NCBI GenBank assembly: GCA_024256285.1
Contig: JACGUG010000004.1
Location: 2,359-66,358, forward strand
Reading direction: 5' to 3'
DNA from: an archaeon
Lineage (GTDB): Archaea > Thermoproteota > Nitrososphaeria > Nitrososphaerales > JACAEJ01
DNA: 64,000 bases
This document shows positions 25,894-41,533 of this stretch, piece by piece. The position numbers and the translations under genes were made by a program. Numbering within the stretch: the first letter of the stretch is position 1; each line of letters starts with the position of its first letter. The notes below the pieces were generated by a model. It worked only from the letters and a program-made list of their open reading frames with translations, was not told where the DNA came from and did no database searches.

Positions 25894-27984
25894 TCACCTC
25901 CTTTTTATCTGGAACTTCTTAAGTGTAAGGGAGTTGGTAATGACGCTTACTGAGCTCATCGCCATAGCGATGGCTGCGAATACGGGACTTAACAGCCCGG
26001 AGGCGGCTACCGGTATGAAGCCTGTGTTATACGCAAAGGCCCAGAACAGGTTCTGCTTGATCTTGCTCATCGTCTTCTTGCTGAGCTTTATCGAAGCAAC
26101 TACGTCACGTAGATCATCCTTGATAAGCACTATTCCTCCGGTCTCAACGGCTACGTCTGTTCCGCTTCCAAGGGCGATCCCTATATCTGCTTGTGCGAGG
26201 GCTGGAGCATCGTTTATTCCATCCCCAACCATGGCCACAACCTTACCTTCTTTTTGGAGACCCTTGATTACCAAAGCTTTCTGGCCAGGGAGCACTTCGG
26301 AGATGACTTTGTCGATGCCCAGTTGTTGGGCGATTGCCTTGGCGGTTCTCCGGTTGTCACCGGTAAGCATAACCACCTCCAACCCCATTCCTTTCAGATC
26401 GTCTACGGCCTCTTTCGCGCTCTCCTTGATCGTATCGGCTACAGCGATCACACCAGCAAGGCTTCCGTTAAGGGCGAGGAGCGTTGCGGTCTTTCCTTCA
26501 TCCTCCAGTTTCTGAATCTTATCTTCTTGGGCTTCTATAGAGATGTTGTTGTCACGCATCAACTTCCTATTTCCAAGTAGAATCTCTGTATCGGAGTGAC
26601 TTGCCTTTACACCGTGACCTGGGACTGCTTCAAAGTAAGTTGGGTCAGGGACCTCAAGCCCCATTTCTTCTACTCTTCTAATTATGGCTTCTCCGAGGGG
26701 ATGCTCTGAACCCTTTTCTGAGATGGCTGCGAATCTTAGAACGTCTCTTTCAGTTGTGTTTGAAAGCGGCACTACATCTGTTACCGATGGTATGCCTTTT
26801 GTTAGGGTGCCAGTCTTGTCGAATACTATGGTCTGTACTTTGTAGGCTTTCTCCAGATACTCCCCCCCCTTTATCAGGATTCCACTCTCCGCACCCTTCC
26901 CCACTCCCACGATTATGGCTGCTGGTGTGGCAAGTCCCAATGCACATGGACACGCGATTATCAGGACCGCTACCAGAGCGGTGAAGCCTTGGATGAAGCT
27001 CCCAGCTAGAAAGAGCCATGTTGCAAAGGCCCCCAGAGCTATCAGGACTACTAAAGGCACGAAGTAGCCGGATACTCTGTCCGCCAAACGTTCTATCGGA
27101 GCTCGAGCTACAGACGCCTCCTCGACCAGCTTCACTATCTGTGCGAGTGTCGTGTCAGATCCAACCTTGGTGGCTCTTATCCTCAACATGCCGCTCTTGT
27201 TTATCGTCGCGCCTATCGCCTCATCGCCGACTTTCTTCTCAACTGGGATGCTTTCACCAGTGATCATCTTCTCATCCACACTCGAGTACCCATCTGTTAC
27301 AATACCGTCGACAGGGATCTTCTCGCCGGGTCTGACTACAACGATGTCTCCTACGCTCACCTCCTCGACAGGGACTTCGATCTCCTTTCCTTCTCGTATC
27401 ACTCTAGCCATCTTGGGCTGGAGACCGAGTAGCTTTCTTACCGCATCTGTCGCCCTTCTTTGCATTGCATGTTCAAGTAGCTTTCCTAGGAGTATGAAGC
27501 CTATGATTAGGGCAGCAGTTTCAAAGTATACAACTCTGGCATTGGGAGGTACCAAAGCTGGGAAGAAGGTAACGACAGTACTGTATCCCCATGCAGCGGA
27601 TGTTCCAATGGCTATCAGTGTATCCATATTGGCTGAACGAGATTTGATAGCGTGCAGAAAGCCCCTGTAGAACCTTTTTCCAGCGATGAATTGCACTGGA
27701 GTTGCAAGGAGAAAGAGCCAGAACTCTATCTTTACAAAGCTCGGAAGAAGATTAACGATGGCTTCTAGACCTATAAGGTCCGCCATGCTGAAGAGTAGCA
27801 GAGGGATCCCAAGGATGAAGCTCAGAGCAGTCATGCGCTTCAGATTTCTAACTTCGATCTCAGGTCTGAGGAAGGTCTGTAGGCAAGCATTGCTGCAGAA
27901 ATAGTATTCAGTTCCACGCACAGTGGCCCGTAGTGCATCGGGGCTTTCACGAACGAACATTCCGCAGATAGGGTCCTTGGGCAT
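25894..27984 (-). CDS. copA: Cu(I)-translocating P1B-type ATPase (CPC type) with an N-terminal TRASH/YHS metal-binding domain
   Basis: The N-terminus has DPICGMFV…[12 protein letters not shown]. Other motifs are TGES, the transmembrane CPC ([13 protein letters not shown]), DKTGTLT and GDGINDAP. Confidence 0.92.
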
Positions 27985-29122: not shown

Positions 29123-29749
29123 TTACGACTCTTCAGGAAACCTCTTCAGCCTCGCTGCATACCTCTCCTTGTAGGCTTCAAGGCAGGTATTACAGCAGAA
29201 GAACCGGGTCCCCTCCCCCACCCTAAGGGTATGTGGCCTCCCTGCGATCTCACCTCCACAGTAGTCGCAGGCCATCCTGATCTTCAGCTCAGGCTTCAAG
29301 AGGAGAGAAGGCCCTTCCTTCACCACCTTCGTAACTATCTGGGTTGTAGTCAGGGAGACTCCTGGCAGGGTGGTAACTTCCTCCTCGATGAAGCGCTGAA
29401 GATCCTCCAACCCTTCCACCATCAACTTCGCCACCAAGTTGCTCTCCCCCGCTGTAGTGAAGACATCGATCACCTCTTCCTTCAAGGCGAGAGACTCCTG
29501 CACTTCGCTTAGATCTTTGGCTTCAACTCGGAGATGCAGAATTGCCATGACTCCCTGTTCCACCTTGGTAAGGTCGAAGATCGGGGCGAAACCTTTGATG
29601 AAGCCCGCATCCTTCATCCGCCTGATCCTGGCCTCCACTGTAGGGGTCGATACTCCAACACGTTTAGCTACCTGCCTGTAGGAGAGCCTTCCATCCTCCA
29701 TCAGGGCCCTTAAGATGGCTATATCCAGACTGTCGAGGATTAGGGGCAT
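29123..29749 (-). CDS. Lrp/AsnC-family regulator with a C-terminal TRASH domain (CopR/CopT-like copper-responsive regulator)
   Basis: The N-terminal HTH reads LDSLDIAILRALMEDGRLSYRQVAKRVGVSTPTVEARIRRM. The C-terminus reads CDYCGGEI…FFCCNTCLEAYKERY. Confidence 0.8.
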   Translation of the reverse strand: MPLILDSLDIAILRALMEDGRLSYRQVAKRVGVSTPTVEARIRRMKDAGFIKGFAPIFDLTKVEQGVMAILHLRVEAKDLSEVQESLALKEEVIDVFTTAGESNLVAKLMVEGLEDLQRFIEEEVTTLPGVSLTTTQIVTKVVKEGPSLLLKPELKIRMACDYCGGEIAGRPHTLRVGEGTRFFCCNTCLEAYKERYAARLKRFPEES

Positions 29750-29781
29750 CTTACGGGAGTTAGATGGTTATCACTCAAGAT

Positions 29782-29800
29782 AAACTTTACGTATGTGAAA
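29782..29800 (+). promoter_or_regulatory. Candidate operator (site A) upstream of the copR-like gene
   Basis: AAACTTTACGTATGTGAAA is internally pseudo-palindromic (TTTAC…GTGAA). It lies 33-51 nt upstream of the copR-like ATG and is similar to site B. Confidence 0.35.
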
Positions 29801-30161
29801 CGTTAGCCACAGGAACTTGACATTCGTTAAGGTTTGCTTTGTTGCAGGCGGCATCCCCCACTTAAAACTTTGGTTCCACTAGCAACGGATTGGCTTTGAG
29901 AACATGGTGGACAAAGAGGTATGTAACGTTCAAACTATCAGCTACAGAATTGGTATTATACTCTGCCCCTCTTTGAACGAATTAAAAGATAGTCCCCTTA
30001 TGAGACTTTGCTAGCTCATGATACATCAAAGCATGTTTCTTTATAGATTCTTATGTCTCTGATGTTAAAAAGAATGTTTTATGTTCTTCCTTTAAAAATT
30101 TCAGTTGACAATTCACATCTGAATGCATATCATCTCACCAATAAATAAAAAAACAGATAAA

Positions 30162-30176
30162 TATAACGCTGTTATA
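30162..30176. promoter_or_regulatory. TATAAC-GCT-GTTATA palindrome (perfect), orphan copy in a 700-bp non-coding gap
   Basis: It is an exact 6+3+6 inverted repeat, and no ORF of 60 aa or more lies nearby. Confidence 0.5.
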
Positions 30177-30446
30177 GTAATGGGCTAGGGTGATAGTTCA
30201 CCTTGCATATTTGGCGATAGCACTACCACTATTTTAGTTTTGGTTTACAGAAAAGAGGTCTAGAGGACCATAACTTGCTATGTGGTCCATGAAAAATAAT
30301 CACGTCTCAGCGAGGATTTCTTGGCTGTTGAGCGAAGAATTCCTTGGATATCTATACAGCTAACAAATGGGGCTCATAATGTTACACCCGTACTCTTCGT
30401 CTACGATGGTCTGAGTATTTTTTCATGACCTACATTCAGCAAACTC

Positions 30447-31334
30447 TCACATTCGCCCTATTTCTAGTATGCGTTCTTGATGTGTCAACACGTTCATTCT
30501 TCTTCCTCTAACAAAGCTGATTATAGTTGTTCCAGTCAGTCGGGCAACTTCGATACCAGAGTAGATGGCCGCAGAGATGGAGGCGACTATCGGGATCTTC
30601 ATACGTGCTGCTTTTAAGACTATGTCTCCTGTGAGTCGTCCGCTTGAAGCCAGAAAACATTCATCGAAGCCAATCTTTTTAAGGGCTACTGCACCTATTA
30701 CTTTGTCTACCGCGTTATGGCGCCCCACATCCTCTGCCCAGACCAAAAGATCGCCTCTATGGGAGTAGATGGCTGCTATGTGGACTCCTCCTGTTTTACG
30801 GTATACTCCATCGAGGGTATTGAGGCGTTTGACCGACTCCGCTATGATTTTTGCTTCGACCTTAGATCTGGATGCAGATCGGGGGAGGCTTAGTCTATCC
30901 ATAAGTTTAGAGAGAGGCCAGTAGTCGGCGGAGCCACATGCAGACACGATCAATCGGGCGAAGGGTTGTGAGACAGCAATCCGTTTTTCGGCATCGACAC
31001 TCGGTGTTAGCCTGACTTGACAATTTCCATCTTTATCTATTTGTATTCTTCGAATCTCCTCTAAAGATTTCAGTACCCCTTCTGAGAGGAGGTGGCCGAC
31101 AGCCAACTCTTTTAACTGGCCTGGAGAGCAAAGAATCGAGACATAGCGGGTTTTGTTCAGAAATATGTGTAGGGGCGTCTCCTCTGCCACAAAATCAATT
31201 TTTGTCTCTATTTTTTTAGACGAAAGATTTATCTGTGTAACTTGAACCTTCTTCAAATCGATCCTCCTCAGTTGGAGATAAGTTAAGAGTTCTCCCTCGG
31301 AAAGGTCTCCTATATCTGCTTGTGAACATGTCAA
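30447..31334 (-). CDS. fdhD: FdhD-family sulfurtransferase (formate dehydrogenase / Mo-bisPGD sulfuration accessory protein)
   Basis: GGVHIAAIY…EDVGRHNAVDKVIGA…SGRLTGDIVLKAARMKIPIVASISA is typical of FdhD. The start codon is TTG. Confidence 0.8.
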   Translation of the reverse strand: MTCSQADIGDLSEGELLTYLQLRRIDLKKVQVTQINLSSKKIETKIDFVAEETPLHIFLNKTRYVSILCSPGQLKELAVGHLLSEGVLKSLEEIRRIQIDKDGNCQVRLTPSVDAEKRIAVSQPFARLIVSACGSADYWPLSKLMDRLSLPRSASRSKVEAKIIAESVKRLNTLDGVYRKTGGVHIAAIYSHRGDLLVWAEDVGRHNAVDKVIGAVALKKIGFDECFLASSGRLTGDIVLKAARMKIPIVASISAAIYSGIEVARLTGTTIISFVRGRRMNVLTHQERILEIGRM

Positions 31335-31347
31335 CCTATCACAGTTT

Positions 31348-31362
31348 CATAACATTATTATA
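31348..31362. promoter_or_regulatory. Degenerate palindrome cATAAC-ATT-aTTATA (10/12), 14 nt upstream of the fdhD start
   Basis: It has the same 6+3+6 geometry as the perfect copies, with one mismatch per half-site. Confidence 0.3.
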
Positions 31363-31465
31363 GTTTAATCCCATTGTGTGATTAGTCTTCTAAGATTTCT
31401 TTCGCTTTCTTTCATATATAATCATGATACATTCTATCTTTCCCTCCCATTTATCTACACTTTTC

Positions 31466-32674
31466 TCATTTAATCGACCTTGAAATCTCCTCAACCGAAG
31501 AAACCAGCTTCTCGATCTCCTCTTGGGTGTTATAGAGATATGTGGAGGCTCGGACGGATCCCCTATGTCGCTTTAGCAAGATTTTCATCAAGGGAAGAGC
31601 GCAATGGGCCCCTGATCTGACCATGATGTTGGCAGAGATATCCAAAGCTAAGGCCACGTTGTGAGGGTTCAGGTCTTTGATGTTGAAGGAAACTATGCTG
31701 ATTCTTTTTTCCAAGTTTTCAGGACCGTAAACTTCGACTTGGGGGATATCTTTTAATCTATAGTGCATCTCCTTAGTTAGTTCCCTTTCATGTGTTTCTA
31801 TGTTCTTCATCCCGATCTTCCTCAGATAATCAGTTGCTGCACCTAATCCGATGACTTCAGCAATCGCAGGAGTTCCAGCTTCAAACCTTTTAGGAATTTC
31901 ATTCATTTTGTAGTAGTCTAAGCCGACATCCTCGATCGTTCCTCCACCGATAGCCATGGGTTCGATCTTTTCCAGCAGATCTTCATGGGAGTAAAGTATG
32001 CCGACTCCAGTTGGACCGAGCATCTTGTGACCTGAAAAGGCCAGGTAGTCACATCCGATTTTTTGAACATCTACTTTCAAATGGGGAACTGATTGGGCTG
32101 CGTCGATAAGCAACTGAGCGCCATGTTCATGGGCAATCTGGGCAACTTCTCTAACTGGCGTTATCACGCCTAAAACGTTTGAAACATGGGTCATTGCCAC
32201 CAAATCTGTTTTATCATCTATCGCTTTTTTGAAATCAGAAATATCGAAAAGCCCCTCCTTGTTCGGTCTAACGATCTCCACATCTACCCCATATCTTCGC
32301 TTCAGACGTAACCAGACTATGAAGTTAGAGTGGTGCTCGATAAGTGTAGTGACTATTTTTCGTCCCTTCTTCCAGTTTAGCCCGTTTGCGACAAGATTTA
32401 TGCCTTCGGTGGTGTTCTTGGTCGTTATTATTTCGGATTCAGACCTAGCATTAATAAATTCAGCAACCTTAGAGCGAGCCTCTTCGTACTCCTCGCTAGC
32501 TCTCTGAGAGAGTCTGTGGATGCCACGTTCAACATTAGCACGGTACTCATGGTAAAACTCCAACATCTTTTGGAGAACAGGCTCTGGGGTTAGGCTGGTT
32601 GCGGCATTGTCTAAGTAAATGATCCCAGAATTTAGCAAAGGGAAATCTTGCCTAATCCTCTGCACATCTAGCAA
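31466..32674 (-). CDS. Class II (SufS/CsdA-type) cysteine desulfurase
   Basis: The PLP lysine context is SGHKMLGPTGVGILY, and the catalytic Cys loop is RSGAHCA. Length is 402 aa, with a TTG start. Confidence 0.88.
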   Translation of the reverse strand: MLDVQRIRQDFPLLNSGIIYLDNAATSLTPEPVLQKMLEFYHEYRANVERGIHRLSQRASEEYEEARSKVAEFINARSESEIITTKNTTEGINLVANGLNWKKGRKIVTTLIEHHSNFIVWLRLKRRYGVDVEIVRPNKEGLFDISDFKKAIDDKTDLVAMTHVSNVLGVITPVREVAQIAHEHGAQLLIDAAQSVPHLKVDVQKIGCDYLAFSGHKMLGPTGVGILYSHEDLLEKIEPMAIGGGTIEDVGLDYYKMNEIPKRFEAGTPAIAEVIGLGAATDYLRKIGMKNIETHERELTKEMHYRLKDIPQVEVYGPENLEKRISIVSFNIKDLNPHNVALALDISANIMVRSGAHCALPLMKILLKRHRGSVRASTYLYNTQEEIEKLVSSVEEISRSIK

Positions 32675-32699
32675 TTTGTATGCCTCCGTTGTATTCTTT

Positions 32700-32714
32700 T
32701 ATAACGCTGTTATT
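32700..32714. promoter_or_regulatory. TATAAC-GCT-GTTATt palindrome (11/12) between a TATA-like box and the cysteine desulfurase start
   Basis: The minus strand reads TTTATATAATAACAGCGTTATA, followed about 25 nt later by the TTG start with GGAGG in between. Confidence 0.5.
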
Positions 32715-32724
32715 ATATAAATAT

Positions 32725-33195
32725 CTACCAACACAATAACTCACTTCCTTTTGAATGAATCGCCCATATCAGGAGAAACGATACGATTCTTGCGACACTT
32801 GCTAATGGATGACCCTTAGCCTTGAGTTCAAGTGTGCAGAACCAACCGAAGGGAGTTCTGACAACCTTAAAGCCTTTTTCAATCAATCCTTTTTTCGTTA
32901 GCTCTAGTATCTCTACTGCGACCTCCGGTTTGCTCAGTTCTCCAAATAGATGAGTGAAGGGATGAAGAACCATAGTGCCTATCTTTAGTTGTTTGGCCAG
33001 CTTGGATATCTGTTCGGTGGCTTTCCTTGAGACCGATTCAGGATCGCGTTCATCTTGTTTCTCAACACTTGATAAAATGATCAATGCTTCCTTTACTTCC
33101 ATGGTCTTGGATTCGGGCTCTTCAACAATCCTAGACCTGCCCTTCTTGCTGATTGTAGAACGGAAATAGTCCACGTGAAGCATAAGCATCCTCAT
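32725..33195 (-). CDS. Free-standing archaeal ThrRS-editing-domain-like protein (tRNA-Thr_ED / DTD-like fold), paralog 1
   Basis: MRMLMLHVDYF…EALIILSSVEKQDERDPE…VLHPFTHLFGELSKPEVAVEIL…PFGWFCTLELKAKGHPLASVARIV resembles the N-terminal editing domain of archaeal ThrRS, as I recall it from Pyrococcus. No synthetase or anticodon-binding domain is attached. Confidence 0.7.
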   Translation of the reverse strand: MRMLMLHVDYFRSTISKKGRSRIVEEPESKTMEVKEALIILSSVEKQDERDPESVSRKATEQISKLAKQLKIGTMVLHPFTHLFGELSKPEVAVEILELTKKGLIEKGFKVVRTPFGWFCTLELKAKGHPLASVARIVSFLLIWAIHSKGSELLCW

Positions 33196-33234
33196 CTTCG
33201 CCCAACCCCATGTCTCCTCAAGGATAGGACTAGA

Positions 33235-33699
33235 TCAATGTTTCAAGTATTCTGCTCTGACTTTTCTCTGACTCCTCCTTAGAATTTCTAACAGCGTTGA
33301 TGAAGATATATTCAGGCTTTTGGCTAGTTCTGCAAGAGTTTTCCTCTTTGGGTAGTCGAAATAGCCTGCTTCAAAAGCCGCCTGAATTATCTGCTCCTGT
33401 CTATGTGTCAATACTTCTTTGACCTTCGCTCTAGTGACCTTGTTTATTTCAACCTCCAATCCCCTGTCAGCAAACTTTTTCAATAGACGCTTGAACTGAT
33501 CGAGCCCTCCCAGGGTGAGAGTATATTCTACATAACCGTTCTTCTTGGTTCTAGCAGAGGCGAGAAAGCATTTTGACTCTGTGAATATTCTACAAGCGAG
33601 ACACTTTGAAGTCTTTATCCAGCCAAAAGCCCTGTCTCTTCCAACTCTGATGATATCGAATTCACAGATAAGCTTGTTTTGATTCATACTTTCTATCAC
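33235..33699 (-). CDS. HTH_10 (Bat/COG3413-like) DNA-binding protein
   Basis: The C-terminus reads LTHRQEQIIQAAFEAGYFDYPKRKTLAELAKSLNISSSTLLEILRRSQRKV. The N-terminal domain may be shortened, because the upstream 200 bp has only broken frames. Confidence 0.65.
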   Translation of the reverse strand: MIESMNQNKLICEFDIIRVGRDRAFGWIKTSKCLACRIFTESKCFLASARTKKNGYVEYTLTLGGLDQFKRLLKKFADRGLEVEINKVTRAKVKEVLTHRQEQIIQAAFEAGYFDYPKRKTLAELAKSLNISSSTLLEILRRSQRKVRAEYLKH

Positions 33700-33902
33700 G
33701 TCATCAAGGATTTCATCTGACCCAGATATCTCTACAATTCTTCTGTATCACATTCGCCATCTCCCGGTTTGCAACTCTTAATCTTGACAATCACGATACT
33801 TTTTAGTGATCTCTTCTATCCACGTATGAACAGTCTTAAGAGACAGGACAACCTCGATCAAGGCTTACACCAAAGATGCTTTCCATTTCAGCCTGACTAG
33901 TG

Positions 33903-34982
33903 TTAGACCATGGGAAGACCTAACCTTTCAGCGATTTTCCTGTATGTCTTCAATGCAGACTCTTCATCGTAAATCCCTGAACCAGGGGCTACCTGTAATA
34001 TAGATACTCCTCCCTTCAGCACGCTCACCCCCACTTCTTTACTATAATCAAAGGTCAGACCCATTGTGCCCTCTGCCTTTAAGGGGATTCCTTCAGCCCA
34101 AAGCTTGTTTCTTATACCTTCTATATCAAGGGCTTTTACTCTCGTGTCAACGATGAAGACGCCCCTTCCATCCCTCCCGCAGACCCCACTCACAGCCTTT
34201 TCGAGCACTTGAGAAGTCTCGATTCTAGCTTCCCCACATGTAGGGCAATTGACATTCCTTGATAACTCTACCACATCGAAGCAGAAGTTCTCAAGGTCCA
34301 CGAACATGAGGCGGTTTTTGAGGTAGGGTTCTCTGTTCAGCAGGATTCTAACTGCCTCGGAGACTTCGATGCTGGAAACTACATCGAGAAGAGGTGTAAA
34401 GACTCCCACGATTGCGCATCTTTCCATATCTTCATCTTTTAGACCTGAGTAAAAGCACTCAAGGCAAGCAGTTTCCCCTGGGATGAAGGTTGATACGTTT
34501 CCAAAGGTCTGGATAGCAGCCCCAAAGATGTAAGGTATCTTCAGCTTTACGGCTGCCCTATTCAAGATGTACCTGGCTCCTATAGTATCCAATCCATCGA
34601 TAACCAGATCTACTCCCTCTATCAGCTCTTCAACGTTGTGAGAGGTGATGGATGTTGCTATGGGGTCTACCTCTACACTGGAATTCAATATACTCAGCCT
34701 CTTTACAGCAGCTTCAACTTTTGGCATACCTATACAGGATTCGTCATAGAGATACTGCCTGTGGAGGTCTGACTTCGATACAACGTCTCTATCGATAACA
34801 CGAAGGTAACCTATGCCCATGGCTACCATCTTCAAGGCTATGGGAGAGCCAAGCCCCCCCGCTCCCACGAGGCATACCCTCCCTGCTCTGAGAAGTGACT
34901 GCCCTTCATACCCTATGTAATTCAGAGCGATCTGCCTTGAATACCTCTCCAACTCTTCATCTGTAAGCTCAGTTCTTCCCAT
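33903..34982 (-). CDS. ThiF/MoeB/UbaA-type E1-like adenylyltransferase with a C-terminal extension of about 100 aa
   Basis: RYSRQI and GAGGLGS form the nucleotide-binding motif. There are two CxxC pairs (CLEC, CPTC). The C-terminal extension has no rhodanese signature that I can see. Confidence 0.85.
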   Translation of the reverse strand: MGRTELTDEELERYSRQIALNYIGYEGQSLLRAGRVCLVGAGGLGSPIALKMVAMGIGYLRVIDRDVVSKSDLHRQYLYDESCIGMPKVEAAVKRLSILNSSVEVDPIATSITSHNVEELIEGVDLVIDGLDTIGARYILNRAAVKLKIPYIFGAAIQTFGNVSTFIPGETACLECFYSGLKDEDMERCAIVGVFTPLLDVVSSIEVSEAVRILLNREPYLKNRLMFVDLENFCFDVVELSRNVNCPTCGEARIETSQVLEKAVSGVCGRDGRGVFIVDTRVKALDIEGIRNKLWAEGIPLKAEGTMGLTFDYSKEVGVSVLKGGVSILQVAPGSGIYDEESALKTYRKIAERLGLPMV

Positions 34983-35141
34983 TCAACTCACCCCAAGAGA
35001 ATATCAGATTGTCAAAACTCCTTTTATAAATGGATGAAACCTTAACCCATATCTACAGGTTAAAATTTTCACTAATGCTTCACATCCTTACATATATCTC
35101 ACCTAGTTAATATATTAATTTATTTTTGACAAAAAATTCCT

Positions 35142-35474
35142 TTATGAATAATCTACTTCCAGTATTCTTTGAGCCTCTACATCATCTTCAAATAAGTATC
35201 TTGAGGGCATTACATCGACCCTTATGCCAAGATTTTCTAAGGTATCTCTTGTTGGTTGTCCGGTGGCGACTATTATCGCACTTTCTTTGAAAAGTTTTGC
35301 TACTTTATTTTTCTTTATACATCTTTGCAATAATCTGAACATGTTCAGATGATTGCGGCAGTAGAACTGGTGAATATCATGGCATCTACCTATAGTTCGA
35401 CAAATCATCGACGAATTCTTCGATAGGAACTTCGAAGGGGTTATGGGCTCATACATTAGAATACATGTCTCCAT
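35142..35474 (-). CDS. Hypothetical protein (111 aa from the ATG at 35474); the C-terminus is faintly HemD-like
   Basis: The tracked 181-aa ORF overlaps the better-supported plus-strand gene at 35529, so I prefer the internal ATG. …IVATGQPTRDTLENLGIRVDVMPSRY resembles a uroporphyrinogen-III synthase half-domain. The region is AT-rich. Confidence 0.3.
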   Translation of the reverse strand: METCILMYEPITPSKFLSKNSSMICRTIGRCHDIHQFYCRNHLNMFRLLQRCIKKNKVAKLFKESAIIVATGQPTRDTLENLGIRVDVMPSRYLFEDDVEAQRILEVDYS

Positions 35475-35492
35475 ATCCTTACATAAAACATA

Positions 35493-35507
35493 TATAACAA
35501 TGTTATA
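35493..35507. promoter_or_regulatory. TATAAC-AAT-GTTATA palindrome (perfect) centred in a 54-nt divergent intergenic region
   Basis: It lies 18 nt from the ATG at 35474 (minus strand) and 21 nt from the ATG at 35529 (plus strand). Confidence 0.5.
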
Positions 35508-35528
35508 ATTAAAATCTGGGGGATTACT

Positions 35529-35951
35529 ATGAAGATGTTGTTCATCCATTGTAATTACTTCTCCTACCTTACAACCCAAAAAACGAAAGTGGCTGAGGAC
35601 CTCCCAAATGGATGTAAAAGTTGCGCTTTTAAGGACGCATTGGTCGTTTTCGTAACCGCAGAGAAAGTCGACGAGAAAAATCCGCAAAAAGTAGTGGGTA
35701 TGGGGATTAAGGCGATCGTAGACGTTTCAAACAAGGTGGGCGCAAAGAACATCGTCCTCTTCCCCTTTGTGCACCTTTCAGACGAAATCAGTAGTGCAGA
35801 GACGGGGTCAGAAATCATTAGAAACATCTATGAAAACCTCAGTTCTCTTAACTATACAGTTGACAAAGCCCCCTTTGGATGGGAGAAGGTGTTCTCCATG
35901 ACCTCAAAGGGCCATCCGTTGGCAGAGCTTTCTAGGACGATTCGGCCATAG
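35529..35951 (+). CDS. Free-standing archaeal ThrRS-editing-domain-like protein, paralog 2
   Basis: MKMLFIHCNYF…ALVVFVTAEKVDEKNPQKV…VLFPFVHLSDEISSAETGSEII…APFGWEKVFSMTSKGHPLAELSRTIRP is closer to the canonical editing domain than paralog 1. Length is 140 aa, single domain. Confidence 0.75.
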   Translation: MKMLFIHCNYFSYLTTQKTKVAEDLPNGCKSCAFKDALVVFVTAEKVDEKNPQKVVGMGIKAIVDVSNKVGAKNIVLFPFVHLSDEISSAETGSEIIRNIYENLSSLNYTVDKAPFGWEKVFSMTSKGHPLAELSRTIRP

Positions 35952-36001
35952 TCCTAAATCCTTAATTTTGAAAATTCATTGAAAGATAAGCTTATAGGAG
36001 T

Positions 36002-36280
36002 TCATCCTCCGCTAACAGCTGGAATGATCGAAACCTCATCTTCATCTTTTAATACTGTATCAAAATAGTTGAGGAAGCGTACATCTTTACCATCTACGTA
36101 GATGTTGATGAACCTTCTTATATTTCCCGTTGCGTCTAAGAGTTTCGCCTTAAACCTGTCTCCCCATCTTGCAGTCAGCCCATCGATTACCTCCCTTAGC
36201 GTCGACGCCTCCACTTCCACCTCTTTTTCTCCAGTCAAGTTCACTAAAGCTCCATAAAGAACGGTTTTTACTTTGCTCAT
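36002..36280 (-). CDS. MoaD/ThiS-family ubiquitin-like sulfur carrier ending in Gly-Gly
   Basis: …INIYVDGKDVRFL…LKDEDEVSIIPAVSGG is followed directly by the stop. GAGGTG lies upstream of the ATG at 36280. An alternative GTG at 36295 would overlap the ThrC-like stop (GTGA). Confidence 0.75.
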   Translation of the reverse strand: MSKVKTVLYGALVNLTGEKEVEVEASTLREVIDGLTARWGDRFKAKLLDATGNIRRFINIYVDGKDVRFLNYFDTVLKDEDEVSIIPAVSGG

Positions 36281-36291
36281 TTTCACACCTC

Positions 36292-37536
36292 TCACTTTAC
36301 GATCTCTGCAAGTGACTCTAAAGTAGGCTCGATCTCAAAGGGTTTAGCTATACTGTTTAAAAGAGTCTCGGCTGCCTTGAACCCGTTACCAGTGACACAA
36401 CAGACAATCTCCTCATCTGGCGATATCTCTCCAAGCTTGACAAGTTTCTTTAAGACCGCTACTGTCACACCACCGGCAGGCTCGGCGAAGATCCCCTCTG
36501 TTTTCGCTAAAAGTTGGATTGCATCTAATATCTCAAAGTCCGTAACTGATTCGGCCACGCCGCCAGATTCACGTATAGCCTTTATGGCATAAAAACCGTC
36601 TCCCGGGTCTCCTATGGCCAAGCTCTTTGCTACAGTAGAGGGATGCTCGATGGGCTTCACGTCAAGGGCGTTGGCTTTAAAGGCCTTTACTATCGGAGCA
36701 CAACCGGAAGGCTGGGCACCCGTGATTCTAGTCTTTAAATCATCGACTAAATCGAGTCTTTGGAACTCTTTGAGGCCCCTCCAAATGGCACAGAGCAAGG
36801 CTCCACTGGCCATCGGCACTATCACACGGTCTGGAGCTTTCCATCCAAGTTGCTCACATATCTCAAAGGCCAAAGTTTTTGAACCCTCCACATAGTACGG
36901 CCGAATGTTTATGTTCGCAAAGGCCCAGTCGTATACCTCTGAAGCCTGAGCTGCGAGCCGGTTGGCATCATCGTAGGTTCCTTTAACGGCCACTATTCTA
37001 GCTCCATAGATCGTTGCCTGTAGGATTTTGTTGAGTTCGATGTCTGATGGAATGAAAACGTAGCAAGGCAATCCGGCTTTGGCTGCATGAGCCGCTGTAG
37101 CGGCAGCTAGATTGCCTGTTGAAGCACACCCGACAGCCTTGGCGCCAAATTCTAGAGCCTTAGATACGGCAACAGTAGCCGGTCTGTCTTTAAATGAGTA
37201 GGTTGGATTGACCGTATCGTCCTTGATATACAGTTTTCTTAATCCAAATATCTCCGCTAGCCTGTCACATCTGTGTAAAATTGTGTAGCCAGCACCTAGA
37301 TCCACGATTTTTGTTCTATTATTGACGGGTAGGAGTTCGAAGTATCGCCAGACCGTTTTAGGTCTATCTTGAAACGATTTCCTGTCAAGCTCTATGAGGT
37401 CATAGTTGTAGGTTACCTCAAGAGGCCCAAAACAGTCCTCACAAGTGTAAATCTTGGTTGGGAGGTGCTCTCTTCCACACTCTCTACACTTGAGCGATCT
37501 GATATATTCCAGTCTCTCGATACTTTCTATAACCAT
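36292..37536 (-). CDS. Threonine synthase-like PLP enzyme with an N-terminal Zn-ribbon
   Basis: CRECG…CEDCFGPLEVTY is followed by the PLP-lysine region PTYSFKDRPA and a TrpB-like fold II pattern. I prefer the ATG at 37536 over 37554. Confidence 0.8.
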   Translation of the reverse strand: MVIESIERLEYIRSLKCRECGREHLPTKIYTCEDCFGPLEVTYNYDLIELDRKSFQDRPKTVWRYFELLPVNNRTKIVDLGAGYTILHRCDRLAEIFGLRKLYIKDDTVNPTYSFKDRPATVAVSKALEFGAKAVGCASTGNLAAATAAHAAKAGLPCYVFIPSDIELNKILQATIYGARIVAVKGTYDDANRLAAQASEVYDWAFANINIRPYYVEGSKTLAFEICEQLGWKAPDRVIVPMASGALLCAIWRGLKEFQRLDLVDDLKTRITGAQPSGCAPIVKAFKANALDVKPIEHPSTVAKSLAIGDPGDGFYAIKAIRESGGVAESVTDFEILDAIQLLAKTEGIFAEPAGGVTVAVLKKLVKLGEISPDEEIVCCVTGNGFKAAETLLNSIAKPFEIEPTLESLAEIVK

Positions 37537-37542
37537 GTTATA
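37528..37542. promoter_or_regulatory. TATAAC-CAT-GTTATA palindrome (perfect) centred on the likely ThrC-like start codon
   Basis: The CAT spacer is the reverse complement of the ATG at 37534-37536. Confidence 0.45.
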
Positions 37543-37636
37543 ACTGATAATCACCTAATACATTAATATTTTTTTGATAATTCTATTCCAATTAGAATAA
37601 AATTGGGGGGACCCTTGCATCGTTAAATATATAAAC

Positions 37637-37651
37637 TATAACGGTGTTATA
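37637..37651. promoter_or_regulatory. TATAAC-GGT-GTTATA palindrome (perfect) just downstream of a TATA-like box and 39 nt upstream of tRNA-Cys
   Basis: AAATATATAAAC is followed by the palindrome, and the tRNA 5' end is at 37690. Confidence 0.5.
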
Positions 37652-37689
37652 GAATGGAGTGGAGACATTGAAGAGGCTTAACCAAACTT

Positions 37690-37782
37690 GCCGGGGTGGC
37701 CGAGCGGTTAGGCGGCAGGCTGCAGACGGTTCTATGTGTAGAGACCTGCTCTACGCAGGTTCGAATCCTGCCCCCGGCTCCA
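37690..37782 (+). tRNA. tRNA-Cys (GCA) with an 18-nt intron at the canonical 37/38 position and an encoded CCA
   Basis: Manual fold gives: acceptor GCCGGGG/CCCCGGC; D arm GCC…GGC; anticodon stem GCAGG/CCTGC enclosing CTGCAG + 18-nt intron + A; 5-nt variable loop; T arm GCAGG-TTCGAAT-CCTGC; discriminator U followed by CCA. Confidence 0.85.
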
Positions 37783-37848
37783 AGATATTAAAAGACACTC
37801 GAATTGAGGCATCGAAAGTATAAAAAGTTCTATTAAATTGGTGATTTT

Positions 37849-38031
37849 ATGGCTGAAAAGGCTGTAGAGGAAACCTTTGCGGTGTTGTTTGCCCTGATCG
37901 ACTTAAGACAGATTTTTAGAGAGACCAAGCCCACTTATCGGCTTAGCACTGAACAGAAGGAGAAGATCAAGGAGATTCTTGGAGAAGTAAGACAGAGTTT
38001 GGATATTATTGAAAAGGAGCTGGTAACATGA
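37849..38031 (+). CDS. 60-aa predicted helical protein translationally coupled to SepCysS (ATGA overlap)
   Basis: MAEKAVEETFAVLFALIDLRQIFRETKPTYRLSTEQKEKIKEILGEVRQSLDIIEKELVT has amphipathic, heptad-like character. Its stop overlaps the SepCysS ATG. Confidence 0.45.
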   Translation: MAEKAVEETFAVLFALIDLRQIFRETKPTYRLSTEQKEKIKEILGEVRQSLDIIEKELVT

Positions 38032-39209
38032 GGGATATCGTTGGTAACATCGAGATCAGGGCAAGAGAGGAACTCTTCATAAACATTCATCCGATTCAAC
38101 CTGGGGGTAGGCTCACCCCAGAAGCCATGAAGGCTCTCATCGCTTACGGAGACGGCTATTCAACTTGTGATTGGTGCAGGAAGCCCTTCAGGCTCGACAA
38201 GATCCAAAGACCTCCGATAGACGAGTTCCATATTGAACTAGCAAAATTCTTGGGAATGGATCAGGCGAGGGTCGTCCCTGGTGCAAGGAGGGGCTTCCAA
38301 GCCGTCGTCTCTTCGATGATCGAAAAGGGAGACTCTGTGATCGTTTCCTCATTAGCACATTACACAGAATTCTTGGCTGTAGAAGCAGCTAGAGGTGTGG
38401 TTAAGGAAGTCCCCCTAAACGAGAATAAAGTAATCACTGGAGAAAACACAGCCAAAAAGATAGAGGAAGTGAAGAAAGAGACGGGAGCCCTCCCAAAACT
38501 GATCATGATGGACCATTTCGATTACATGCTGGGGAATGAGCATGACGTTCGTGGGGTTGCGCGAGTTGCGAAAGATTACGGTATCCCCTTTCTGTATAAC
38601 GGCGCCTACACAATAGGGGTGATGCCTGTAAATGGGAAAGAGATAGGGGCAGACTTTTTGGTGGGCTCAGGACACAAAAGTTTCGCCTCCCCCGCACCTT
38701 CTGGGATCTTGGCAACTACTGAAGAGTGGTCAGACAGAGTGTTTAGAACGACTCAGATGGTCGGCGATGTGACAAAAAGGAAATTTGGGATTAAAGAAGT
38801 CGAGATGATGGGTTGCACTTTGATGGGCGCCAATCTAATTGCAATGATGGCAAGTTTTCCTACTATAAAAGAGCGGGTTAAACATTGGGACGAAGAAGTC
38901 GAGAAGATCAACTATTTCGTCAAGGAATTTTTAAAGATCCAAGGAAATAGGGTTCTGAGTGAGGTGCCGAGGAAACACACTCTAACGAAGGTAGATACGA
39001 CAGGAAGCTTCGATAAGATTGCGCAAACCCACAAAAGGAGGGGTTTTTTCTTCAGTGATGAGTTAAAAAAGAGGAAGATCGTCGGCGAATTCGCAGGAGC
39101 CACAAAGGCTTGGAAGATGAACACTTATGGACTAACGTGGGATCAGATAAGATACTTGGCCCAAGCATTTCAAGACATTGCAAGAAGATATAACATAGAT
39201 GTAACATAA
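38028..39209 (+). CDS. pscS: O-phosphoseryl-tRNA(Cys):Cys-tRNA synthase (SepCysS)
   Basis: HPIQPGGRLTPEA…GDGYSTCDWC…RLDKIQRPPIDEFH…LAKFLGMD, the PLP site GSGHKSFASPAPSGIL, and GCTLMGANLIAMMASFP match my recollection of archaeal SepCysS sequences. Confidence 0.85.
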   Translation: MRDIVGNIEIRAREELFINIHPIQPGGRLTPEAMKALIAYGDGYSTCDWCRKPFRLDKIQRPPIDEFHIELAKFLGMDQARVVPGARRGFQAVVSSMIEKGDSVIVSSLAHYTEFLAVEAARGVVKEVPLNENKVITGENTAKKIEEVKKETGALPKLIMMDHFDYMLGNEHDVRGVARVAKDYGIPFLYNGAYTIGVMPVNGKEIGADFLVGSGHKSFASPAPSGILATTEEWSDRVFRTTQMVGDVTKRKFGIKEVEMMGCTLMGANLIAMMASFPTIKERVKHWDEEVEKINYFVKEFLKIQGNRVLSEVPRKHTLTKVDTTGSFDKIAQTHKRRGFFFSDELKKRKIVGEFAGATKAWKMNTYGLTWDQIRYLAQAFQDIARRYNIDVT

Positions 39210-39343: not shown

Positions 39344-41533
39344 ATGAACCATCGAAACCATAATAAACATAGTCACCAAGACCATGCTCACCACATAGAA
39401 GAGTTCAAAAGAAGGCTTTGGCTATCCCTTATACTTACAATCCCCATTCTACTTCTTTCCGAAATGATCCAGATATGGTTTGGTTTTAGTCTAAAAATAC
39501 CATTTCAGAAAGAGGTTTTATTCCTTCTATCTCTAATTGTTTACCTTTACGGTGGGTGGCCCTTCTTAAAGGGAATAGTCCAAGAAGTAAAGACCCACCA
39601 GCCAGGGATGATGACCCTTATAGGCACAGCCATATCCGTGGCCTTCTTCTATTCTGCAGGAACAGTCTTCCTCATAGTTGGGAAGGATTTCTTCTGGGAA
39701 CTTGTAACTCTTATCGATGTAATGCTTCTTGGGCACTGGATAGAGGCTAAAAGTGTTCTTGGGGCTTCGAGGGCATTGGAAGAGCTCGTCAAGATAATGC
39801 CTACGACAGCCCACCTTGTCAAAAACGGTGAAATTGCAGATGTCCCAGTTTCACAGTTAAAGACTGACCAAGTTGTTCTTGTTCGTCCAGGAGAGAAGAT
39901 ACCTTCCGATGGCCTTGTAATAGAGGGGAAATCCTTCGTCAATGAAGCCCTTTTGACAGGAGAATCGAAACCCGTTCATAAAGAGACAGAAGATAAAGTG
40001 ATAGGTGGTGCAATAAACGGAGAAGGCGTTTTGAAGGTAAGAATAGAAAGGACAGGTGAAGAAACTTATCTGGCACAGGTAATAAAACTAGTAAGACAAG
40101 CTCAAGAAAGTAGGTCTAGAACTCAAGATCTGGCAAACAGAGCATCGGCCCTTCTTTTTTATGTTGCCCTTGGAGTGGGAATAGTAACCTACATAACATG
40201 GTTTCTTCTTTCTACACCCTTTTTTGCCCTTGAAAGATCCGTTACGGTTCTCGTTATAGCCTGCCCCCATGCCCTCGGTCTGGCAATACCTCTTGTTGTC
40301 GCCCTCTCCACTTCTATAACTGCAAAAAGTGGAATCCTCATCAGGGATAGAAGAGCCTTTGAGATGGTCAAGGATGTAAACGCTGTTGTCTTTGACAAGA
40401 CTGGGACGTTGACAGAAGGCAAGTTCGGGGTTAGTGATGTGGTATCCTTGACGCCTGAAGATGAACTTTTAAAACTCACTTCAAGTGTAGAACTGAACTC
40501 TGAGCATATAATAGCAAAGGCTATTGTGGAATATACAAAGGAAAGAAGTATAGCGATTCCTCAGGTGCAGGAATTCAAGGCGATACCCGGTAAGGGTGCC
40601 TATGGAAAAGTTGAAGACAAAGAAGTCTATGTAGGAAGTCCGAACCTTCTGAAAGAAATGAAGATAGAGATAGAAGATCAGAGGATAAAGGAACTTCAGG
40701 AACAGGGCAAAACGGTCGTTTTTACCATAGTTGATGGAAAACTTGTTGGTGCCTTCGCTCTTTCTGATAAGATAAGAAAGGAATCCTACGAAGCGGTCAG
40801 GAAATTAAAGGAGATAGGGTTAAAGGTCTACATGCTCACAGGGGATGCTGAGGAAGTCGCCCGATGGGTTGCGAAAGAACTCGGTATAGACGAATACTTT
40901 GCCCAAGTCTTGCCCGACGAGAAAGCAGAAAAAGTCAAGCTCTTGAAGGAAAAAGGCTATAAAGTTGCTATGGTCGGCGATGGCGTGAACGATGCTCCCG
41001 CCCTTGTTACGGCAGATGTTGGTATCGCCATAGGTGCTGGAACCGATGTAGCCATAGAAAGTGCAGATATAATCCTCGTGAAAAATGACCCTACGGACGT
41101 TTCAAAGGTTACTGACCTTTCACAGAAAACGTACTCGAAGATGGTTCAGAATCTGTGGTGGGCATCGGGTTATAATATCTTCGCTATACCCCTAGCAGCT
41201 GGTGTTTTGTATAATTTCGGAATAGTCGTAAGTCCTGCGGTGGGGGCCTTGTTTATGTCCTTGAGCACCGCTATAGTTGCCTTTAATAGCCAGACCTTGA
41301 GAAAGTACGAACCAAAGGTTGCAGAGTTTGTAGAGAAGAAGCATATGACCACAGACCCGGTTTGTGGGATGAAGGTAGAACCCGAAAAGGCTTACAGCAA
41401 GATGGAGTATGAGGGATATGTTATCTACTTCTGTTCAGAAGACTGTGAAGAGGAATTTAAGAAGAATCCTGAAAGATACCTATCAAAGATGAAAAAAGAA
41501 GAACCTAAAAAACATGAACATCGCCATCACTAA
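39344..41533 (+). CDS. copB: P1B-type copper ATPase of the CPH (CopB-like) type, with a His-rich N-terminus and a C-terminal TRASH/YHS domain plus His-rich tail
   Basis: The N-terminus reads MNHRNHNKHSHQDHAHH. Core motifs are the transmembrane ACPHALGLAIP, DKTGTLT and GDGVNDAP. The C-terminus has DPVCGMKV…YVIYFCSEDCEEEFKKNPERY…KHEHRHH. Confidence 0.9.
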   Translation: MNHRNHNKHSHQDHAHHIEEFKRRLWLSLILTIPILLLSEMIQIWFGFSLKIPFQKEVLFLLSLIVYLYGGWPFLKGIVQEVKTHQPGMMTLIGTAISVAFFYSAGTVFLIVGKDFFWELVTLIDVMLLGHWIEAKSVLGASRALEELVKIMPTTAHLVKNGEIADVPVSQLKTDQVVLVRPGEKIPSDGLVIEGKSFVNEALLTGESKPVHKETEDKVIGGAINGEGVLKVRIERTGEETYLAQVIKLVRQAQESRSRTQDLANRASALLFYVALGVGIVTYITWFLLSTPFFALERSVTVLVIACPHALGLAIPLVVALSTSITAKSGILIRDRRAFEMVKDVNAVVFDKTGTLTEGKFGVSDVVSLTPEDELLKLTSSVELNSEHIIAKAIVEYTKERSIAIPQVQEFKAIPGKGAYGKVEDKEVYVGSPNLLKEMKIEIEDQRIKELQEQGKTVVFTIVDGKLVGAFALSDKIRKESYEAVRKLKEIGLKVYMLTGDAEEVARWVAKELGIDEYFAQVLPDEKAEKVKLLKEKGYKVAMVGDGVNDAPALVTADVGIAIGAGTDVAIESADIILVKNDPTDVSKVTDLSQKTYSKMVQNLWWASGYNIFAIPLAAGVLYNFGIVVSPAVGALFMSLSTAIVAFNSQTLRKYEPKVAEFVEKKHMTTDPVCGMKVEPEKAYSKMEYEGYVIYFCSEDCEEEFKKNPERYLSKMKKEEPKKHEHRHH

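Follow-up and report, generated by a model that had tools for sequence, protein, structure and literature searches.

A probable co-regulated sulfur amino-acid gene cluster with SepCysS, tRNA-Cys and a predicted MetM-type homocysteine synthase in a 64-kb stretch of archaeal DNA

The 64-kb stretch of archaeal DNA analyzed here (from contig JACGUG010000004.1; hereafter, the window) contains an island of eleven adjacent genes that encode an FdhD-family sulfurtransferase, a SufS-family cysteine desulfurase, two proteins that resemble the editing domain (ED) of ThrRS (ED1 and ED2), an HTH_10 DNA-binding protein, a ThiF/MoeB-family E1, a MoaD/ThiS-like sulfur carrier, a ThrC-like pyridoxal phosphate (PLP) enzyme, a tRNA-Cys, the small peptide SepCysSn and SepCysS, the O-phosphoseryl-tRNA:Cys-tRNA synthase (Table 1). 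The best explanation of this island, and one that we consider probable, is that it is a co-regulated sulfur amino-acid cluster composed of separable modules, each of which has already been described. As to the substrates, the direction of sulfur flow, the role of FdhD and the substrate of ED2, we infer the following scheme. The tRNA-Cys, SepCysSn and SepCysS genes would serve to build cysteine on tRNA-Cys from phosphoserine, SepCysS acting by its own cysteine-based chemistry, and ED2 would police or deacylate tRNA-Cys. The SufS-type desulfurase would take sulfur from free cysteine as a persulfide, which would be relayed by FdhD (probably) or by the C-terminal extension of the E1; the E1 would then adenylate the Gly-Gly end of the carrier, which would be converted to a thiocarboxylate, and the ThrC-like enzyme would form homocysteine from O-phosphohomoserine and the carrier thiocarboxylate, the reaction reported for MetM/MetO. 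A single sulfur-responsive regulator would govern the FdhD, desulfurase, ED2 and ThrC-like/MoaD genes and the tRNA-Cys operon through a common palindromic operator.

The open reading frame (ORF) calls of the window, which constitutes our whole view of this genome, were searched against Pfam and the NCBIfam curated models, and gene neighborhoods were counted in 80 loci around SepCysS homologues, 58 of them from methanogens, and in 80 loci around ThrC-like homologues with 49-79% identity to the window protein. An earlier sequence-only reading of this DNA had listed the same eleven genes, and all of their identities and coordinates were recovered by these searches. The same reading had proposed a persulfide-to-thiocarboxylate relay that feeds the ThrC-like enzyme, and this is still the best interpretation in view of the conserved module, the riboswitches and the position of the desulfurase gene described below.

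The ThrC-like, MoaD and E1 genes are a conserved module in their own right. In 67 of the 80 ThrC-like loci the MoaD-like gene is the next one after the ThrC-like gene, the two ORFs overlapping by 4 nucleotides (nt) in the window, an E1 gene is found near the ThrC-like gene in 51 of these loci, and the module holds down to 49% identity. In all nine bacterial loci tested, whose products are 49-52% and 38-48% identical to the window proteins, the E1/ThrC-like/MoaD operon is immediately preceded, on its own strand, by an S-adenosylmethionine (SAM) riboswitch that scored 60-90 bits, and these riboswitches place the ThrC-like family in methionine biosynthesis. The archaeal ThrC-like gene is preceded by the palindromic operator in place of the riboswitch. 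At its N terminus the ThrC-like protein carries a four-Cys Zn-ribbon of about 60 amino acids (aa) whose Cys23, Cys26, Cys38 and Cys41 are kept in 81, 81, 81 and 72 of 81 homologues, respectively, the bacterial ones included; the solved threonine synthases are without this Zn-ribbon, and those in the PDB align with the window protein only from residue 62-69 onward (best score, 262 bits).

MetM of Streptomyces albulus is reported to be a threonine-synthase-like enzyme that uses the MetO thiocarboxylate and O-phosphohomoserine to produce homocysteine, and the Streptomyces metM gene lies behind a SAM riboswitch (Hasebe 2024 as cited in PMC12172450; bioRxiv 10.1101/2024.10.14.618325). Because the bacterial homologues of the window protein also sit behind SAM riboswitches, the MetM/MetO reading is preferred over that of a threonine synthase, and the ThrC-like enzyme is a probable MetM-type homocysteine synthase, as predicted from its sequence and gene context. 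The likeness to MetM/MetO, which is one of description and context, lies in a threonine-synthase-like PLP enzyme encoded beside a small carrier and in activation by an E1. The window differs from that system in four respects: its carrier ends directly in Gly-Gly, so that no Mec-type trimming would be needed; its E1 ends in an uncharacterized domain, whereas MoeZ has a rhodanese domain; FdhD and a SufS-type desulfurase are encoded alongside; and control is by a palindromic operator in place of a riboswitch. In the CysO/CysM/MoeZ/Mec system of Mycobacterium tuberculosis and the HcyS/HcyF/HcyD/MetY system of Wolinella succinogenes, an E1-made thiocarboxylate on a ubiquitin-like carrier gives its sulfur to a PLP enzyme for the synthesis of cysteine or homocysteine. 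The window is unlike CysO/CysM and HcyS/MetY in that its PLP partner has the threonine synthase fold and no JAMM protease is found in the window.

The ThiF domain of the window E1 ends at residue 247 and is followed by about 110 further residues, which agrees with the C-terminal extension noticed in the sequence-only reading. This extension was detectable (28-38% identity) only in the E1s of 13 ThrC-like/MoaD loci and was missing from every E1 encoded beside a methanogen SepCysS; therefore, the window E1 was assigned to the ThrC-like module. The extension matched no Pfam family even at E = 1, and an AlphaFold2 model made from the single E1 sequence was uninformative about it (mean pLDDT of 32). 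The E1 scored below all the MoeB, ThiF and UbaA equivalog cutoffs (221.3 bits versus 449 and 168.6 versus 376.55 for the MoeB models), and when the pair was compared with the SAMP/UbaA system, both the carrier (56.8 bits versus 60 for SAMP1) and the E1 (189.6 versus 450 for UbaA) fell short of the cutoffs. Among the window ORFs scanned there were no MoaE, other molybdenum cofactor biosynthesis or formate dehydrogenase genes, and no rhodanese, TusA or DsrE genes. In loci L091, L093 and L095 (related loci are designated by L and a number) the operon order is ThrC-like gene, carrier, E1 and cysteine desulfurase, an order that supports the desulfurase as the source of the carrier's sulfur.

Two of these loci also contain an in-frame fusion of a MoaD-like part (...AVSGG), a ParB/Srx-like segment and a cysteine-synthase-like PALP domain (L095:3259-5007(+) and L091:11326-12885(+)), which is positioned between the ThrC-like gene and the E1 and cysteine desulfurase genes. 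This protein is possibly a fused analogue of CysO/CysM that would need cleavage after Gly-Gly, and carrier-dependent cysteine synthesis probably exists in the L091/L095 lineage, judging from the fused domains. The fusion, although outside the window, is a closer analogue of CysO/CysM than the ThrC-like/carrier pair of the island.

A homocysteine module neighbors SepCysS in 56 of the 80 SepCysS loci. In methanogens, a gene for a MetY-like O-acetylhomoserine sulfhydrylase comes directly after SepCysS in 51 of the 58 loci and a MetX-like acetyltransferase gene then follows in 36 of the 58; next in line there is often an ED gene, whose product has a Cys-rich tail, and then a DUF1890 gene. Methylarchaceae, Bathyarchaeia and Hadarchaeota have the ThrC-like/MoaD genes instead, either adjacent to SepCysS (the window, L001 and L006) or 1-4 kb away (L003 and L014). 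MetY/MetX and ThrC-like/MoaD are non-homologous routes to the same product, and their presence beside SepCysS argues that the theme of the island is the joint synthesis of cysteine and homocysteine and provides independent support for the assignment of the ThrC-like enzyme to homocysteine formation. SepCysS is thus habitually encoded beside whichever homocysteine pathway a lineage uses. The ThrC-like gene is found in 4 and MoaD in 9 of the 80 SepCysS loci, and SepCysS in 5 of the 80 ThrC-like loci; in L001, L003 and L006 the SepCysS, ED2 and ThrC-like/MoaD genes stay close to each other in a shuffled gene order. A literature search returned no paper in which SepCysS is paired with O-acetylhomoserine. 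The Methanomicrobiales and Methanosarcinales loci (within L021-L079, e.g. L076:9683-15090) show the order SepCysS, MetY-like, MetX-like with CBS domains, ED with a C-terminal CDFxCPxC tail, and DUF1890.

The sequence-only reading had also noticed a shared DNA motif, which could be confirmed: the palindrome TATAAC-NN-TGTTAT(A) occurs at six sites in the window, all of them in the island, against 0.36 matches expected when both strands are counted, and it recurs in related loci. Thus, 36 sites were found in 16 of the 19 SepCysS loci from Thermoproteota, Bathyarchaeia and Hadarchaeota and 38 sites in 19 of the 39 archaeal ThrC-like loci, and none in the 61 methanogen and other SepCysS loci (882 kb) or in the 41 bacterial-like ThrC loci, the Markov expectation being about 0 in each of the four sets (loci with the palindrome are L001-L016, L018, L033 and those within L081-L126). 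In the fetched loci the palindrome is usually located 26-38 nt before start codons, and the genes that follow it are those for the desulfurase, ED2-type proteins, tRNA-Cys/SepCysSn, the ThrC-like enzyme and E1; the position upstream of tRNA-Cys is also occupied in BA2 and other Bathyarchaeia loci. Elsewhere it precedes genes for ThiI, a cysteine-synthase-like PALP protein, sulfite reductase, a DsrE-like protein, a SerA-like dehydrogenase and FTR1. Since it stands before sulfur genes of such different kinds, the operator marks a broad sulfur regulon and does not tie the relay to SepCysS in particular. The palindrome looks like the putative operator of a sulfur regulon common to Bathyarchaeia, Hadarchaeota and Methylarchaceae, and it should report the sulfur status of the cell; no description of the operator or the regulon was found in the accessible literature.

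A recurring Cys-rich protein of about 106-136 aa that starts with 'M(R/K)xPCE..V..VLPA.R' ('MRPPCELVVR...' in its 129-aa form) follows the palindrome in related loci, and on the basis of its sequence it is a candidate for the sulfur-responsive regulator that may act at this operator. The protein is present in 21 of the 80 SepCysS loci and in 33 of the 160 SepCysS and ThrC-like loci overall, methanogens included. The L083 member had no Pfam match, the 106-aa Methanolobus member (L036) gave weak helix-turn-helix (HTH) matches, and a search of the window for this Cys-rich HTH protein did not find it. A second control element may be present upstream of the E1 gene, where an 88-nt stretch (35103-35187) shares 77% identity with L110:156-243, a region that immediately precedes a ThrC-like gene and comes after what looks by eye like the end of a TusA-like ORF; the window stretch holds a second palindrome, TTTTTGnCAAAAA, and the related TTGTCAAAA is found at 35009-35017.

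Table 1. Genes and palindromic operator sites of the island, in window coordinates, and members of two associated families in related loci
Feature	Position	Strand	Evidence or remark
FdhD-family sulfurtransferase, 295 aa	30447-31334	-	PF02634 225 bits; TIGR00129 191.3 bits vs cutoff 140.9
SufS-family (class II) cysteine desulfurase, 402 aa	31466-32674	-	Aminotran_5 477 bits; TIGR01979 496.5 vs 475.1
ED1, divergent ThrRS-editing-domain-like protein, 156 aa	32725-33195	-	PF08915 (tRNA-Thr_ED) 128 bits vs cutoff 30.2
HTH_10 DNA-binding protein, 154 aa	33235-33699	-	Pfam
ThiF/MoeB-family E1, 359 aa	33903-34982	-	ThiF 227 bits, residues 14-247
ED2, free-standing ThrRS-editing-domain protein, 140 aa	35529-35951	+	PF08915 143.8 bits vs cutoff 30.2
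MoaD/ThiS-like sulfur carrier, 97 aa, ends ...AVSGG	36002-36295	-	ThiS 55 bits; moaD_arch 52.9 vs 49.5
ThrC-like PLP enzyme, 420 aa (deposited form 414 aa)	36292-37554	-	PALP 262 bits
tRNA-Cys(GCA), intron-containing	37690-37782	+	Rfam tRNA model 51 bits
SepCysSn, 60-aa helical adaptor peptide	37849-38031	+	N-terminal homology to fused SepCysS; no Pfam match
SepCysS (O-phosphoseryl-tRNA:Cys-tRNA synthase), 393 aa	38028-39209	+	PRK09331 625.8 bits vs 301; TIGR02539 420.5 vs 365.25
Putative operator, orphan copy	30162-30176		in a gap of about 700 nt without ORF of at least 50 aa
Putative operator, 1 mismatch	31349-31362		15 nt upstream of FdhD start
Putative operator	32700-32713		center 33 nt upstream of desulfurase start
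Putative operator, perfect palindrome TATAACA-A-TGTTATA	35493-35507		center 29 nt upstream of ED2
Putative operator	37528-37542		overlaps ThrC-like start region
Putative operator	37637-37651		about 46 nt upstream of tRNA-Cys
Cys-rich protein, members	L083:8736-9134(-), L081, L084, L087, L033:9133-9543, L036:2971-3291(-)		and 27 further loci
ED1-type neighborhoods	L161:7001-8199, L162:7001-7815, L164:6001-6781, L165:6001-6719, L166:846-2106, L167:5631-6791		

The Rfam alignment of the window tRNA showed an insertion in the anticodon loop, and the gene could be aligned with eight intron-less tRNA-Cys(GCA) genes from the same position in related loci, apart from an insertion of 18 nt after the anticodon loop. 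This alignment settles its identity as tRNA-Cys(GCA) and overrules the assignment by ARAGORN as Ser(aga); the discriminator base is U73, the CCA end is encoded in the gene, and the canonical 37/38 site is occupied by an intron of 18 nt (37726-37743). The sequence-only reading had likewise listed an intron-containing tRNA-Cys. In the close relative HK01M (L001:3513-3605), ARAGORN gives a tRNA-Leu(cag) for the corresponding gene, whose exons are identical to those of the window tRNA and whose intron differs at several positions. In most of the related loci examined, tRNA-Cys is near SepCysS, usually directly upstream of SepCysSn/SepCysS; in Methanoculleus-type loci (L045:6702-9799 and L051:6739-9799) the 3 kb that precede SepCysS contain tRNA-Cys(GCA) in three or four copies.

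SepCysS matched the enzyme of Methanocaldococcus jannaschii (PDB 3WKR) with an E value of 2e-97, is 80% identical to the Bathyarchaeota BA2 enzyme and conserves Cys47 and Cys50 (CDWC), the PLP-binding Lys217 (SGHKS) and Cys263 (MMGCT), all of them aligned with the M. jannaschii residues. The stop codon of SepCysSn overlaps the start codon of SepCysS (ATGA). Homologues of SepCysSn are found as a split 60-aa peptide in about 20 loci, the split form being that of Bathyarchaeia and Hadarchaeota, and are fused at the N terminus of the methanogen SepCysS proteins of 451-462 aa; a profile of 15 SepCysSn sequences gave a non-significant match (E = 1.2) to SepCysE MJ1481 (PDB 3WKS chain C). The gene that follows SepCysS in the window encodes a copper-type P-ATPase, not SepRS, and SepRS comes after SepCysS in only 5 of the 80 related loci.

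A layout of SepCysS, tRNA-Cys, SepCysSn, tRNA-Thr-ED and 'a few sulfur metabolism genes' has been described, including the split and fused forms of SepCysSn, by Mukai et al. 2017 (mBio, PMC5424206) and its update (PMC8762117). Those SepCysS loci share with the window a tRNA-Cys gene directly upstream, the split SepCysSn, an adjacent free-standing ED gene, and a desulfurase and sulfur genes nearby; the window differs from them in having a P-ATPase gene rather than SepRS after SepCysS and an intron in the tRNA. The sulfur genes are unnamed in the accessible text of that paper, which contains no mention of a ThrC-like/MoaD pair, of a shared operator or of a second ED paralogue. The sequence-only reading had known of no description of the gene combination as a unit. 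This is only partly true, since the association of SepCysS with tRNA-Cys, SepCysSn, ED and sulfur genes (PMC5424206) and the ThrC-like/carrier route (MetM/MetO) are published; the systematic pairing of SepCysS with either of two homocysteine routes and the archaeal MetM/MetO with an extended E1 were, like the operator, not found described in the accessible literature.

ED2 matched the editing domain of Pyrococcus abyssi ThrRS (PDB 1Y2Q) end to end (1e-31) and retains His83, Lys121 and Glu134 (P. abyssi numbering), Tyr120 being replaced by Glu. ED1 has Cys at the position of Lys121 and Ser at that of Glu134, where the consensus of its own family is Asn and Arg. Both proteins consist of a single domain, and their matches to the 387-aa Ser-tRNA(Thr) hydrolase model are confined to positions 1-138. 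ED2-type proteins (57-87% identity) adjoin SepCysS in L001, L003, L004, L006, L007, L018 and L019, and 31 of the 80 SepCysS loci, from several phyla, have an ED gene no more than 10 kb from SepCysS, such genes being far commoner there than the carrier gene; an ED gene was found in 3 of the 80 ThrC-like loci. An ED has been proposed to edit Ser-tRNA-Cys (Mukai et al. 2017, PMC5424206), and ED2 most likely deacylates wrongly or prematurely acylated tRNA-Cys. ED1 and ED2 have the editing-domain fold family (PF08915) in common with ThrRS-ed, the crenarchaeal trans-editing protein (Korencic et al. 2004, as cited in PMC5424206 Text S1), and ED2 keeps the three P. abyssi residues named above; unlike ThrRS-ed, both window proteins are without an anticodon-binding domain, and ED1 has replaced Lys121 and Glu134.

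The ED1 family is separate from that of ED2 and well populated, with more than 120 clusters at 56-81% identity. In its neighborhoods (Table 1), a DsrE-family gene comes after the ED1-type gene in six of seven cases, one of them by way of a CGGC-domain gene, an ArsR-type HTH gene precedes it in five of seven, and several of the homologues in these seven neighborhoods are near TusA, ThiF, PALP, cysteine desulfurase or sulfite reductase genes. Because of these neighbors, ED1 looks like a member of sulfur-trafficking operons and not necessarily like a tRNA editor. The ED1-type/DsrE/ArsR pairing was not found in the accessible literature, where none of the papers on tRNA-Thr-ED or DsrE has both terms. 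A profile-profile comparison of DUF1890, encoded after methanogen ED genes, with DsrE, encoded after ED1-type genes, gave a probability of 1.7% and showed no link between them.

Desulfurase homologues (at least 40% identity) are located within 10 kb of SepCysS in 26 of the 80 loci, and an FdhD gene accompanies SepCysS in 13 of them, all from methanogens (13 of 58), in several cases beside a cysteine desulfurase gene. FdhD of the window has a single cysteine, Cys133, in the sequence 'SACGS', whose equivalence to the loop cysteines of the Escherichia coli protein was judged by eye. In E. coli, IscS and FdhD transfer sulfur to the molybdenum cofactor of formate dehydrogenase. The window resembles that system in that the desulfurase gene stands beside FdhD, but its desulfurase is of the SufS type, no formate dehydrogenase or molybdenum cofactor gene was found among the window ORFs scanned, and the pair has its operator in common with the cysteine and homocysteine genes. 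In L036 and L060 the FdhD and desulfurase genes are together and divergent from SepCysS; in this Methanolobus layout the strand opposite to that of FdhD and desulfurase encodes SepCysS, a ThiF-only E1 of 245-248 aa and MoaE (in L060, MoaE follows the E1), and to judge from its sequence and neighbors this E1 is a molybdopterin synthase activator. MoaE is near SepCysS in 9 of the 80 loci. The desulfurase/FdhD pair of the island may therefore serve cofactor sulfuration besides, or in place of, carrier loading.

These methanogen arrangements bear on an alternative in which FdhD, desulfurase, E1 and carrier are all molybdenum or tungsten cofactor genes (MoeB/MoaD plus FdhD sulfuration) that merely adjoin the cysteine genes. 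FdhD is indeed above its equivalog cutoff, the carrier is above the cutoff of the archaeal MoaD subfamily, and the Methanolobus layout pairs FdhD/desulfurase with SepCysS/E1/MoaE, MoaE recurring near SepCysS. Nevertheless, we regard this as unlikely for the whole set of genes because no MoaE or other molybdenum cofactor gene is present among the window ORFs scanned, the carrier gene shares nucleotides with the ThrC-like gene, after which it is placed in 67 of 80 loci, and the E1 is below all MoeB cutoffs and has an extension that tracks ThrC-like loci; for the FdhD/desulfurase pair alone, the cofactor reading may apply. We consider it very unlikely that the ThrC-like enzyme is just a regular threonine synthase whose neighbors in the island have come together by chance in a compact genome, even though the protein scores above the cutoffs of the curated threonine synthase models, threonine synthases are its closest relatives of solved structure, and public records label all its homologues threonine synthase. 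The TIGR00260 and PRK08197 models do not separate ThrC from MetM-like proteins, and MetM is often misannotated as threonine synthase (GapMind 2026; PMC12172450; bioRxiv 10.1101/2024.10.14.618325). Further points against a threonine synthase placed there by chance are the conserved Zn-ribbon extension, the carrier gene downstream, the control by SAM rather than of a threonine type in bacteria, the operator, confined to the island within the window, and the recurrence of gene subsets in several phyla. In agreement with the sequence-only reading, for which scattered homologues would have spoken against a unit, gene subsets recur beside SepCysS in other genomes, so that the grouping goes beyond chance.

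The sequence-only reading had gone further and proposed that the thiocarboxylate made by desulfurase, E1 and carrier is the physiological sulfur source of SepCysS as well as of the ThrC-like enzyme, with the ED proteins acting on an intermediate. Such a dual-donor chemistry would parallel that of CysM/CysO acting on O-phosphoserine, the MoaD-PALP fusions, whose PALP part is CysK/CysM-like, suggest that carriers serve cysteine formation in the L091/L095 lineage, and the SepCysS, ED2 and ThrC-like/MoaD genes are kept close in three loci despite shuffling and share the operator. Moreover, the in vivo sulfur donor of SepCysS was given as unknown in a 2008 review (PMC2330236), and the reading, too, had called it unsettled. 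The part of the proposal that concerns SepCysS is not supported by our results, and we consider the dual-donor model quite unlikely. SepCysS and ThrC-like/MoaD rarely co-occur and each is widespread without the other; the methanogen SepCysS proteins, with about 70% identity, adjoin MetY/MetX, and MoaE comes after the E1 that neighbors them; the E1 of the window is a member of the subfamily associated with ThrC-like genes; a cysteine synthesis fed by a cysteine desulfurase is circular, with no net gain of cysteine; an adduct of the thiocarboxylate on Cys-tRNA should rearrange and yield an N-acylated aminoacyl-tRNA, and the protease that this would probably require is not encoded in the window; and the co-regulation is generic, as the operator also precedes other sulfur genes elsewhere. 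The opposite direction of flow is conceivable, though again unlikely. ED2 may be the missing enzyme that frees cysteine from Cys-tRNA-Cys or clears Ser-tRNA-Cys, in which case sulfur would run from SepCysS through ED2 and the SufS-type desulfurase to FdhD, E1 and carrier and on to homocysteine and cofactors, all under one operator, and SepCysS would supply the relay, contrary to the dual-donor model. [quoted passage not shown]

The interpretation of the island as a co-regulated cluster of separable modules has to face several observations that weigh against it. The ThrC-like protein scores above the curated threonine synthase cutoffs (306.7 bits versus 167.1 for TIGR00260 and 317.7 versus 303 for PRK08197), and no JAMM/Mec protease for the release of homocysteine from the carrier adduct was found among the window ORFs scanned. 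The E1 gene is without an operator copy, and the nearest relative has no E1 gene at the corresponding position. The known job of FdhD is the sulfuration of the molybdenum cofactor, not the loading of a carrier. A tblastn search with the BA2 SepRS gave no match in the window, and the activity of the SepCysS route in the source genome is therefore only assumed. Finally, the locus counts were drawn from related genomes and are non-independent events.

Two questions on tRNA-dependent cysteine synthesis, namely the in vivo sulfur donor and the exit of free cysteine from the tRNA, receive from the island and its relatives a short list of candidates: ED2, the SufS-type desulfurase, FdhD and the E1/carrier pair. 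The conserved module suggests that the thiocarboxylate-dependent homocysteine route of bacteria is also present in uncultured archaea, and this assignment would improve the metabolic reconstruction of Bathyarchaeia, Hadarchaeota and Methylarchaceae, whose ThrC-like gene now bears the label threonine synthase. Each module is of a known kind, so the cluster is useful and not fundamentally new.

The nearest relatives of the window SepCysS are those of Candidatus Methylarchaceae HK01B and HK01M (93% identity), a group classified as Nitrososphaerota by NCBI. The 2.7-kb ED1/HTH_10/E1 segment of the window (32714-35492) is absent at the corresponding position in HK01M (L001:1130-1338), where about 200 nt with two operator copies separate the desulfurase gene from ED2; in the window the segment sits exactly between two such copies. 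By this alignment the segment is an insertion or deletion relative to HK01M, and its three genes are the sole genes of the island without an operator copy. The N-terminal half of the HTH_10 protein contains Cys residues and matched no Pfam family even at E = 1, and homologues of the protein were found in none of the 80 SepCysS loci and, as one weak match (L097, 31% identity), among the ThrC-like loci.

The island is flanked by genes for two copper-type P-type ATPases with YHS domains (25894-27984(-) and 39344-41533(+)) and for an AsnC-type/TRASH-domain regulator (29123-29749(-)), and SufBC is located about 16 kb from it. In HK01M a P-ATPase gene likewise comes next after SepCysS, with 94% identity to the window copy, and in L003 the sulfur operator is found upstream of a P-ATPase gene. 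The GC content is 38-48% inside the island and 48-51% just upstream, and the base composition gives no clear sign of foreign origin. Six-frame translation of the gaps at 29750-30446 and 34983-35528 yielded no protein relatives in the fetched loci; the former, of about 700 nt, has no ORF of at least 50 aa and carries the orphan operator at 30162; it may be the site of a small RNA, of a very short gene or of a gene in decay. A 181-aa ORF opposite ED2 (35142-35687(-)), whose last approximately 50 residues fall in the spacer between E1 and ED2, has no family match and is probably spurious. The window also contains a DUF169 gene (12092-12790(+)), a family listed among the occasional neighbors of SepRS (PMC8762117), and in L162 a DUF169 gene adjoins a SepSecS-family gene.

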